In this document: piece after piece, positions 61,901 through 64,000 of the stretch
Layout of the letters: each line of letters starts with the position of its first letter
How positions within the stretch are numbered: the first letter of the stretch is position 1
Assembly (NCBI GenBank): GCA_041737175.1
Contig: JBGSSF010000012.1
Span: 19-64,018 of the forward strand
Direction: 5' to 3'
Length of the DNA: 64,000 bases
From: Bacteroidales bacterium
GTDB taxonomy: Bacteria > Bacteroidota > Bacteroidia > Bacteroidales > UBA10428
Translations under genes and position numbers: made by a program
The notes under the pieces: model-generated
Database searches by the model: none
Seen by the model: only the letters and a program-made list of their open reading frames with translations
Told to the model about the DNA's origin: nothing

Positions 61901-63409
61901 CTAAAGGGGTTCCCAGGTCATATCCCTGTCGAGCGGATAACTGGGACGATGAACATTTTTATAGGGCAAATTCGGAATATCGAGATTACAAAATCCCGAG
62001 GTCAGAGCCATTAAATGCACCGGCGCTATATCGCGAAGTTCAGGAAACAAATAGCCCAATTTGACAACCACTATTTTGAAGTCCAAAGGATTGAGCCCAA
62101 CCTCCTTAAAATCCCTGATCTCCACAAAAGAGCGACAGGATTTTAAAATGACGGTCGTCACACCCTCCGTTTCAACAACGGCTGCCCCCCTGCTTGTATT
62201 CATCACCGAATCAGGAGATATGAATACTACTTTTGCGCTTATTGGAAGCGGCTTCCCAAAAACTGTATCAACTTTGCCCCCCAGCGTGAGATCTACTTTT
62301 TGCCCAATCCCGGCTTCCATATATGTTGTCAAAGCTTCAGGATCAACAATGCCTGCCATCAGGGCATTCTTACATTTATGATGTAGCAAAGCACCCAGTA
62401 CCTGTGTGTTATCACCAGGTGCGCCTGCAGTCGTGTTATCTCCTGAATCGGAAATAAAGACAGTAGTATCCGCATATTCCTGTGATTTGAGTATCATCTC
62501 ATCCATGGATCCGGAGGGCACATCCAGTTCAAGTTTTTTTCTGTTGTCCCAGATCTGCCGGGCCAGGCGAACGGCTTCATTTTTGGCTGTTGCACTGTAT
62601 TTTTTATCTTTGGCCACTACAAAAACCCTCATTGCGGAACGAGGAAGGTCCGCCCAGCAATAACCTGCAAAAATGGAAGCATCGACCAGGCCTTCCATTT
62701 TACTGATGCCAGGGATTTGTTCATAGATGGGGCGCAAGGGCTCCACTTCCGTAATGCTTTTTTCACCCGGCACCAGTATGGGTATTACTACACTCTCGAT
62801 CTGAGGTTTCCATCCGGATTTCAGGGCATCCACAAGCATTTGTGCAGCCCTGGCCCTTGTTTCGGCTCCATCTCTGTGTGGCGCAGTGCGATAAGCGGTT
62901 AACATATCTATATTTTCCACAAACTCGGGGGAAGGATTTCCGTGAAGGTCGAAACTTCCAGAAATGAGAATGTCTTTTCCCACCAGGTCCCTTATTCCCT
63001 TGATGAGGTCAACCTGGGCGTCTTCGTAACCTTCAACATGCAATGCGCCATGCATATCCATATAAATGCCATCAATTTTTCCTGCATTTTTGATATCATT
63101 CAGTATCTCGTTCCTGAAGTTTTCATAGGCTGACCGTTCGACTATCCCTCCCGGCCAGGCATCTGCATGCAGGGTTGGAATAATTTCCATGCCCGCGTTT
63201 TTCAACACATCGGCCCACAGTTGATCCTTCAGAACTTCAGTTCCGCGCAGCACATGAAAGTCGGTTTCTTTTGTAAGGAAGGTTGAAAACGTGTTGGACT
63301 CATGACTGATCCCTAAAGTCAATATCCTTTTCCGGGCTGGTTCCTGCTTACATGTAAAAGCTGAAAACAGGAATAATCCTGACAAAACATATTCTATAAG
63401 GTTTTTCAT
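61901..63409 (-). CDS. M81 family metallopeptidase (MlrC-like)
   Basis: N-terminal motif LGISHESNTFS and overall ~500-aa MlrC N+C domain organisation, with a signal/lipobox-like start. Confidence 0.65.
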   Translation of the reverse strand: MKNLIEYVLSGLFLFSAFTCKQEPARKRILTLGISHESNTFSTFLTKETDFHVLRGTEVLKDQLWADVLKNAGMEIIPTLHADAWPGGIVERSAYENFRNEILNDIKNAGKIDGIYMDMHGALHVEGYEDAQVDLIKGIRDLVGKDILISGSFDLHGNPSPEFVENIDMLTAYRTAPHRDGAETRARAAQMLVDALKSGWKPQIESVVIPILVPGEKSITEVEPLRPIYEQIPGISKMEGLVDASIFAGYCWADLPRSAMRVFVVAKDKKYSATAKNEAVRLARQIWDNRKKLELDVPSGSMDEMILKSQEYADTTVFISDSGDNTTAGAPGDNTQVLGALLHHKCKNALMAGIVDPEALTTYMEAGIGQKVDLTLGGKVDTVFGKPLPISAKVVFISPDSVMNTSRGAAVVETEGVTTVILKSCRSFVEIRDFKEVGLNPLDFKIVVVKLGYLFPELRDIAPVHLMALTSGFCNLDIPNLPYKNVHRPSYPLDRDMTWEPL

Positions 63410-63490
63410 GACTGTTATTTGAGGTTTTATTCAGTACGTATGTGCAATTTAGGAAATTAAGATAAATAATAGTTAATAAATACTATTGTA

Positions 63491-63498
63491 TATCTTTG
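63491..63498 (+). promoter_or_regulatory. Bacteroidota -7 promoter box (TATCTTTG) for the tRNA gene
   Basis: Exact TAnnTTTG match ending 8 nt before tRNA position 1. Confidence 0.5.
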
Positions 63499-63506
63499 TT
63501 TATCAA

Positions 63507-63584
63507 GGGACGTTAGCTCAGTCGGTTCAGAGCGTCCCGACTGACAAGTCGGGAATTTCACTGGTTCGAGTTCAGTACGTTCCA
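63507..63584 (+). tRNA. tRNA gene (78 nt, no encoded CCA) with a 20-nt anticodon arm; GAC (Val) if read as the 7-nt loop CTGACAA; acceptor stem carries G3:U70 and A73
   Basis: Acceptor GGGACGT/ACGTTCC, T8, D-arm GCTC-AGTCGGTTCA-GAGC (A14, G18G19, A21), T-arm ACTGG-TTCGAGT-TCAGT. The anticodon arm TCCCGACTGACAAGTCGGGA is 3 nt longer than canonical. Confidence 0.6.
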
Positions 63585-63652
63585 CTTAATTACACCAGGA
63601 TCTGCCTTGCATAACCCGCTACGAATTCTAAATAAACACAAATGCGTATTCC

Positions 63653-64000
63653 ATGAAGCAATTCTTCAAAATCCTGCTATACACTATCGGCTCACTTTTG
63701 GGTCTGCTGATTCTGCTGGTTCTGATAGGCTGGCTTTACATGGGTATTTCCTCACGGTCATCCGTCAAAAAATGCAAAGCACTTCAGTCCGGCGAAGTCA
63801 AAACGCTAACTATTGACGATTTTACATTCAGAGACCTGAACAAGAACGGTAAACTGGATATCTATGAGGATTCCAGGAAACCGGTCGATGAGCGGGTGAA
63901 CGACCTCATTTCAAAGATGACAATAGAAGAGAAAGCCGGAACGATGTTCTTCATGATGATCTCCATGAAGAAAGACGGTTCCATATCCGAAAAACCAGCC
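63653..64000 (+). CDS. Glycoside hydrolase family 3 (beta-glucosidase-like), N-terminal 116 codons; runs off the window
   Basis: My own translation from the ATG at 63653 gives a TM/signal anchor followed by FRDLNKNGKLDIYEDSRKPVDERVNDLISKMTIEEKAGTMF, a typical GH3 N-terminus. It is open to the window end and absent from the ORF track because it has no stop. Confidence 0.7.
   Translation, partial: MKQFFKILLYTIGSLLGLLILLVLIGWLYMGISSRSSVKKCKALQSGEVKTLTIDDFTFRDLNKNGKLDIYEDSRKPVDERVNDLISKMTIEEKAGTMFFMMISMKKDGSISEKPA

Follow-up and report, generated by a model that had tools for sequence, protein, structure and literature searches.

Does the aberrant tRNA-like gene close to the end of the 64,000-nucleotide stretch of Bacteroidales DNA analyzed here (hereafter the window) specify a tRNA with unconventional decoding properties, or does it owe its shape to some other process? 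The gene lies at 63507-63585 on the forward strand and is the sole tRNA detected in the window by ARAGORN, a check proposed in an earlier interpretation made from the letters of the window (the sequence-only reading); the program labels it "tRNA-???" and assigns it the four-base anticodon "gaca". When the region was scanned alone, the Rfam tRNA model RF00005 matched it end to end (63507-63584) with 46.3 bits (E 4.9e-9), a score above the gathering threshold of 29 bits but below the range of 63.4-76.4 bits obtained for the tRNAs of the same genome. This match was absent from the gathering scan of the whole window and was found when 301 nt were scanned alone; the speed filters of Rfam can conceal atypical tRNAs. 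At its other end the window holds the 3' end of a 23S rRNA gene (1-331) and a 5S rRNA gene (401-509), recovered by Rfam with 335 and 90.5 bits respectively.

The cloverleaf features and the promoter listed in the sequence-only reading were borne out on inspection. The 5' part of the gene (63507-63534, forward strand) comprises the acceptor 5' strand GGGACGT, U8 and A9, a D arm and G26, whereas the 3' part (63555-63584, forward strand) comprises the variable loop ATTTC, a T arm with the T loop TTCGAGT and the pair G53:U61, the acceptor 3' strand ACGTTCC and A73. The core bases U8 (T8 in the DNA), A14, G18G19 and A21 are in place, and the 7-bp acceptor stem is fully paired, with a G3:U70 wobble pair; as read from the sequence, G2:C71, G3:U70 and A73 together constitute the identity set of tRNA-Ala. 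A promoter motif of the Bacteroidota -7 type, TAtcTTTG (63491-63498, forward strand), ends 8 nt upstream of the gene and is the only one of its kind within the intergenic region 63410-63652; the same TAnnTTTG motif precedes many genuine tRNA genes of this genome at a distance of 6-60 nt. A sigma-70 scan returned nothing on the strand of the tRNA-like gene.

Between these two parts lies the peculiarity of the gene, a palindromic arm of 20 nt, TCCCGACTGACAAGTCGGGA (TCCCGAC-TGACAA-GTCGGGA; 63535-63554, forward strand), which occupies the anticodon-arm positions 27-43 that normally span 17 nt. The window contains a single copy of this arm, and 100 shuffled versions of the window yielded no match to it even with three mismatches allowed. 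Among several possible folds the sequence-only reading had considered one with an 8-nt loop, the hallmark of a frameshift suppressor, here for the quadruplet GACA. However, the predicted RNA fold has an 8-bp stem closed by a GACA tetraloop (-33.6 kcal/mol, z -4.75), with the acceptor stem, T arm and D arm still able to form, and DNA fold prediction likewise gave 8 bp and a tetraloop. Among the variants of the palindrome described below the seventh stem pair appears as C:G, A:T, T:A or G:C, and because it changes in this compensating fashion the stem must comprise at least 7 bp; beyond it the prediction places a U-A pair that narrows the loop further. The 8-nt loop consequently fails as a description of the arm: the C and G at the ends of the would-be loop are paired to each other, so that there is no open 8-nt loop on a normal stem, and neither does the arm present the canonical 5-bp stem and 7-nt loop with U33 and a purine at position 37. 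The +1 frameshift suppressors of the sufD/sufJ type have a normal 5-bp stem and one extra loop base, which gives an 8-nt loop. The present gene is like them in the extra length of its anticodon arm and in the four-base "anticodon" reported by the gene finder, but unlike them in its stem of 7-8 bp, its loop of 4-6 nt and the provenance of the arm, which is a transplanted palindrome. A bacterial tRNA intron was also considered and rejected, given that the net gain is just 3 nt without any intron-sized insert, as was an assembly artefact, given that the identical 20-mer is present in many independent genomes.

The first lead to this provenance came from a BLAST search, which recovered a second "tRNA-???" from another family (locus L013) with the arm TCCCGAA-TCACAA-TTCGGGA. 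A pattern of this form, TCCCGANTNACAANTCGGGA, matched 5 of 401 genomes of the order and none when reversed as a control, and a scan of one genome per species yielded 98 matching stretches, mostly from Bacteroidota. The arm under study is identical in 20 of 20 positions to a hairpin found beside GIY-YIG ORFs in the genomes G017, G305 and many others, and it matches cassettes of other families too. Alignment of such copies with their intact neighbors showed that in over 30 Bacteroidota loci the palindrome occupies precisely the place of the 17-nt anticodon arm in a tRNA copy, with homology to the partner tRNA restarting at the immediately adjacent base on either side. The tRNAs plugged in this manner include Val-TAC, Arg-ACG, Arg-TCT, Ala-TGC, Pro-TGG and Thr-CGT, and in these >30 loci the palindrome-bearing copies adjoin a gene for a GIY-YIG nuclease of ~90 aa. 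Read from these alignments, the exchange of a 17-nt arm for a 20-nt plug accounts fully for the three surplus nucleotides of our gene.

The loci can be sorted into three classes by their layout. In class A an intact tRNA is followed by a terminator, the ~90-aa GIY-YIG ORF, the palindrome, a duplicated 3' part of the tRNA and another terminator. In class B the intact tRNA is preceded by tandem units, each made up of the 5' half of a tRNA, the palindrome and half a T stem. Class C has the arrangements of classes A and B, but the loop runs the other way. The most instructive case is that of G017, the closest species genome and a member of the same genus, where three 76-nt class-B units, an intact tRNA-Val(TAC) and five tandem 349-bp class-A units follow one another (locus L036; G017:C10:341500-346500, minus strand). 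Each of the 76-nt units consists of a 5' half and the hairpin, each of the 349-bp units of the ORF, the hairpin and a 3' half, and all of them carry the exact 20-mer or a version of it with a single-base change in the loop. Almost all other plugged copies are truncated, unlike our gene with its complete cloverleaf; among the scanned loci ARAGORN identified only one other full-length plugged copy, which stands in tandem behind an intact tRNA-Val(TAC) (L091). At a Chitinophagaceae MAG locus (L079) we observed nine 75-nt units combining the 5' half of tRNA-Arg(TCT) with the palindrome, and in two Cloacimonadota MAGs (L046 and L107) copies of tRNA-Asp(GTC) have a related palindrome, TCCCGATT..AATCGGGA, in place of their T arm. 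The 20-nt palindrome, unchanged or almost so, was also encountered away from tRNA copies (L033 in G113, L054, L082, L074, L085, L105 and L113), where it forms terminator-like hairpins between runs of A and T, in L033 directly after a 5S rRNA gene. Hence, the palindrome may additionally be a free-standing REP-like element.

The relationship between nuclease gene and palindrome also sheds light on the apparent anticodon. A phmmer comparison of ORFs ending near palindromes identified 26 GIY-YIG ORFs that abut the hairpin, three representatives of which match the Pfam GIY-YIG family PF01541; for the ORFs of the relatives there is also a UPF0213 match in the PDB. Translation of the D-arm remnant and of the palindrome's 5' arm supplies the final residues, ...GSEHPD, after which 21 of the 26 ORFs terminate at a TGA or TAA that opens the loop (hairpin offset +7). 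Given this position of the stop codon, the "GAC" of our gene is to be regarded as the tail of the stop codon (the loop TGA at 63542-63544, forward strand, from which the apparent "GAC(A)" anticodon derives) rather than as an inherited Val(GAC) anticodon. The proposal that the embedded CTGACAA is a Val(GAC) anticodon loop is accordingly abandoned.

To which tRNA, then, does the body of the gene belong? Of the tRNAs of its own genome it most resembles those for valine. Comparison within the genus showed that 27 of the 28 bases of its 5' part are identical to tRNA-Val(CAC) (loci L005-L007), that G26 and A44 agree with the same tRNA, and that the 3' acceptor strand differs from that of the genus Val(CAC) solely in a T for C at position 70. 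The acceptor stem and positions 26 and 44 fit Val(CAC) and not the Val(GAC) of its own genome, and on these characters the body is assigned to the tRNA-Val(CAC) type rather than to Val(GAC). To gauge its condition, a reference set of 41 distinct Bacteroidota tRNA-Val was used. In the 5' part no conserved position holds a rare base; all four departures are confined to the 3' part and are C-to-T or G-to-T changes. Position 46 (63557) is T in place of the G of 41/41 reference tRNAs; position 61 (63572) is T in place of a C that is likewise invariant in all 41, giving G53:U61; position 45 (63556) is T, whereas the reference has G in 38, A in three and T in none; and position 70 (63581) is T, giving G3:U70, whereas 38 of the reference tRNAs have C and the three with T each pair it with an A at position 3. 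Invariant tertiary and T-arm bases of tRNA-Val, namely G46 and the pair G53:C61, are thus lost. Together with an Rfam score some 20-30 bits lower than those of the genuine tRNAs of this genome, this loss is a sign of decay. The sequence-only reading had taken G53:U61 as favoring decay and had noted that both wobble pairs could stem from C-to-T changes, and these suggestions agree with the comparison. The arm itself carries no mutation against the four changes of the 3' part, a difference that is not statistically significant as only ~1.4 changes are expected. Overall, then, the idea of a decaying copy of a valine tRNA stands, while its supposed Val(GAC) parent gives way to the Val(CAC) type, and a random gain of three nucleotides gives way to the replacement of an arm.

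As had been recommended, we also looked for the canonical genes in the assembly. In its 36 contigs ARAGORN identified 35 tRNAs, inclusive of canonical Val(TAC), Val(GAC) and Ala(GGC) genes, and no Val(CAC) gene; the assembly is incomplete for tRNAs, lacking some of the tRNA and rRNA-operon genes. Since tRNAs for Asp, Cys, Pro and Ile are also missing, the lack of Val(CAC) proves little. Ala(TGC) is a further tRNA that ARAGORN did not find in the 36 contigs.

We then considered the genomic neighborhood, which according to the ORF list is formed by two protein-coding genes that, from their translations, we take to encode an MlrC-like peptidase and a GH3-like glycosidase. The former (61901-63409, reverse strand) is the divergently oriented left neighbor, while the latter, of 660 aa, starts 69 nt downstream of the tRNA-like gene (63653-64000 in the window, forward strand), with no terminator-like site in between. 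The MlrC-like gene has an orthologue in G017 with 75% identity, and this is the only gene common to the orthologous site of that genome: homology stops near 63457, and no tRNA follows the MlrC-like gene in G017. On the other side, homology to the GH3 gene of a relative with 91% identity (L149) starts at 63623. The promoter motif and the tRNA-like gene therefore sit on a lineage-specific island of ~165 nt (63458-63622) at which synteny breaks on both sides. No tRNA was found upstream of the GH3 gene in metagenome relatives of 69-91% identity, which have different neighbors there, and a contig of the same species (L140, 99% identical) begins inside the GH3 gene and is uninformative on the upstream region. 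Likewise, there is no synteny with the genus Val(CAC) loci L005-L007, these species being too divergent, with flanking genes only ~45% identical.

Around the tRNA-like gene itself, neither the ORF list nor a search of its genome for GIY-YIG proteins revealed a nuclease ORF or a remnant of one, and ARAGORN found no intact partner tRNA, nor any other tRNA in the window. Furthermore, no GIY-YIG gene of the tRNA-cassette type exists anywhere in this genome, so that the link to the cassettes rests on sequence identity and on the relatives. Traces of a cassette can nevertheless be recognized elsewhere in the genome. Behind the terminator of its tRNA-Val(TAC) (contig C11:4633-4700, locus L160) there is a stub of ~35 nt, TTGCAATATTTCGTTTATACAGCG, that corresponds to the opening codons of the GIY-YIG ORF located after the orthologous tRNA-Val(TAC) in G017. 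From this match a cassette seems to have been deleted at this locus, and we take one to have been present earlier in the lineage. The genome also holds a second plugged copy, of tRNA-Arg(ACG), on the minus strand of contig C13 (~97740-97630, locus L163), with no ORF nearby and 60 nt upstream of an intact tRNA-Arg(ACG) (Rfam scores 31.4 vs 63.4 bits); this copy is of full length, its variable loop contains a double hairpin of ~40 nt, and its 3' acceptor strand is broken. Because no ORF adjoins our gene and the only stub, of ~35 nt, is at another tRNA-Val locus, we file it as an orphan remnant and not as an intact cassette.

Taken together, the above observations make it likely that the tRNA-like gene is an orphan, non-decoding, hairpin-plugged relic of tRNA-Val(CAC) left behind by a GIY-YIG/palindrome cassette. 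The intact element consists of a working tRNA followed by a terminator, the ~90-aa GIY-YIG gene, the palindrome and a duplicated 3' part of the tRNA; the reading frame of the nuclease gene continues across what remains of the D arm and across the first arm of the palindrome, and closes at the TGA or TAA of the loop. Other units, consisting of a tRNA 5' half and the palindrome, lie upstream of the working tRNA. The nuclease itself may act on the hairpin. The present arrangement could plausibly have arisen if a class-B unit recombined with a class-A unit through the palindrome that they have in common: the intact tRNA and the ORF would be lost, and the promoter, a 5' half, the plug and a 3' half would remain. 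The relic would afterwards have acquired changes at invariant tRNA positions, one of which by chance created G3:U70. An 8-bp stem closed by a tetraloop cannot present an anticodon, and for this reason the relic is not expected to decode. It may still be transcribed and processed, given its complete cloverleaf with a paired 7-bp acceptor stem, its clean 5' half and its well-spaced promoter motif.

The last point leads to the possibility that the relic, while not decoding, is still of use, either as a processed 5' leader of a GH3 transcript that would begin at the old tRNA promoter, run through the tRNA-like structure and have it excised by RNase P and RNase Z, or as a hairpin kept because a GIY-YIG nuclease specific for it recognizes the site or is countered by it in immunity. 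The leader version finds some encouragement in the lone TAnnTTTG motif preceding the relic, in the absence of a terminator before the GH3 start 69 nt downstream, and in the acceptor stem, T arm and D arm that can still form; the nuclease-site version draws on the unmutated hairpin and on the presence in this genome of one GIY-YIG nuclease gene flanked by hairpin repeats. No other gene of the genome is clearly of the GIY-YIG type, and this one (104 aa, Pfam PF01541, contig C1:52500-53200) is bordered on both sides by tandem inverted-repeat units of ~45 nt, gcttcgactccgctcagcatgacacgccaggtcaccctgagcggagtcgaagggcac. However, its product shares just 34% identity with the cassette type and the repeats around it are not those of the cassettes, the GH3 genes of relatives do without a tRNA-like leader, and the relic offers no conservation by which constraint could be assessed. 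We hence regard a residual role of either kind as rather unlikely.

Very improbable is a more specific version, in which the relic would be transcribed, trimmed by RNase P and RNase Z, CCA-tailed and alanylated by virtue of G3:U70 and A73, yielding a non-decoding Ala-tRNA-like molecule. If this were true, the alanylated relic could be the donor in a non-ribosomal reaction, or could regulate GH3 as a processed leader, and would represent a relic of a selfish element recruited to a new role.

The sequence-only reading had gone further and envisaged a functional tRNA that would owe its alanine charge to G3:U70 and A73 and would read a valine codon or, by means of an enlarged loop, GUC(N). The alanine identity set on an intact 7-bp acceptor stem, the four-base anticodon from ARAGORN and an Rfam score in excess of the gathering threshold would all be in keeping with such a tRNA. 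Yet the same 20-nt arm is found in dozens of truncated copies that are not tRNAs, its "GAC" is a piece of a relic stop codon, its stem comprises at least 7 bp by covariation and a predicted 8 bp with a tetraloop, and G46 and C61 are lost. Moreover, G3:U70 is missing from the plugged copies of G017 and from all 41 reference tRNA-Val, and the relatives have no tRNA at this site. This lack of conservation, alongside the intact Val(GAC) elsewhere in the genome, argues against the proposal, which on the above evidence is hardly tenable. Random decay of a duplicated tRNA-Val(GAC), with a chance gain of 3 nt and no link to any cassette, is effectively refuted: a canonical Val(GAC) gene does exist, with a T arm resembling that of the relic, but the Val(CAC) character of the acceptor stem and of positions 26 and 44, and a 20/20 palindrome match beyond chance (5/401 genomes vs 0 for the reversed control, with a shuffle expectation of 0), leave no place for it.

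A search of the literature found no description of arm-replacing palindromes or GIY-YIG cassettes at tRNA genes, and returned SegB, Ssn and unrelated papers on mitochondria. The nearest published system is that of Ssn and its SRM repeats, although the resemblance is one of design and not of membership. The Ssn family comprises single-domain GIY-YIG endonucleases of ~94 aa from CDD family cd10448, which cleave single-stranded DNA adjacent to a hairpin and are flanked by SRM/NTS hairpin repeats (Chenal et al. 2025, PMC11893778). Similarly, the relatives of our genome have a stand-alone GIY-YIG protein of ~90 aa tightly linked to a palindrome of ~20 nt beside its gene, and this palindrome, too, stands alone elsewhere in their genomes, for instance as a terminator-like hairpin. 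In contrast to Ssn, the palindrome exactly replaces arms of tRNA copies, and the word "tRNA" occurs 0 times in PMC11893778; the nucleases of the relatives are identified by sequence (PF01541, UPF0213), and the window contains no nuclease gene. When the degenerate SRM motif, HGTCWYN(0-2)YYVSBRHN(0-5)WNVSBRGN(0-2)RNCYNB (PMC11893778), was searched as a regular expression on both strands of the relic and of a G017 cassette unit there was no match, whereas the NTS positive control matched. The 104-aa GIY-YIG gene with its flanking repeats recalls the Ssn/SRM layout as well, but it has neither a link to a tRNA nor a match to the SRM motif.

A second point of comparison is SegB, a GIY-YIG homing endonuclease which, according to the title and abstract of PMC2330249, is encoded by a free-standing gene within the cluster of tRNA genes of phages T4 and T6, and for which those of a 2026 paper (PMC13096335) describe segmental amplification. 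Going by these titles and abstracts, the likeness lies in a GIY-YIG gene situated among tRNA genes, and the arrays of the relatives (five 349-bp and nine 75-bp units) recall the amplification driven by SegB; the same sources portray SegB as larger and phage-borne, cutting the double-stranded DNA of tRNA genes, and the titles and abstracts of both papers mention no arm-replacing palindrome or plugged pseudo-tRNA. The tRNA pseudogenes left by integrative elements are like our relic in being non-functional sequence derived from a tRNA, located at a synteny breakpoint and decaying at invariant positions. However, such integration scars are plain partial duplicates of tRNA 3' ends, whereas the relic is a complete cloverleaf in which one arm has been exchanged for a palindrome.

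Reading the gene as a relic of a GIY-YIG/palindrome cassette has consequences beyond this locus. For hairpin-plugged tRNA copies gene finders return a "tRNA-???" with a four-base anticodon, and in Bacteroidota such a call should not be taken for a natural quadruplet decoder or an identity-switched tRNA; the present example would be neither. More widely, a ~90-aa GIY-YIG nuclease is accompanied by a 20-nt palindrome that takes the place of exactly one arm in a tRNA gene copy, and the pair is found with many tRNAs and in many families. The locus would illustrate an end state of such cassettes, namely a full-length, orphan plugged tRNA, possibly formed at the expense of the Val(CAC) gene, and thereby bears on the erosion of host tRNA gene sets.

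Finally, the tRNA genes of this genome show another unusual association. In at least seven of them repeats of the CACACCCA type occupy the 30-70 nt immediately in front of the gene and finish with CTAGTC at the 5' end of the tRNA (for example C1:62853, C1:258081, C2:89611, C4:49083, C18:50933, C29:278400 and C35:244657), and some of these genes are followed by GT/GA-rich repeats that are apparently complementary to the former, giving them an unusual common leader and trailer.
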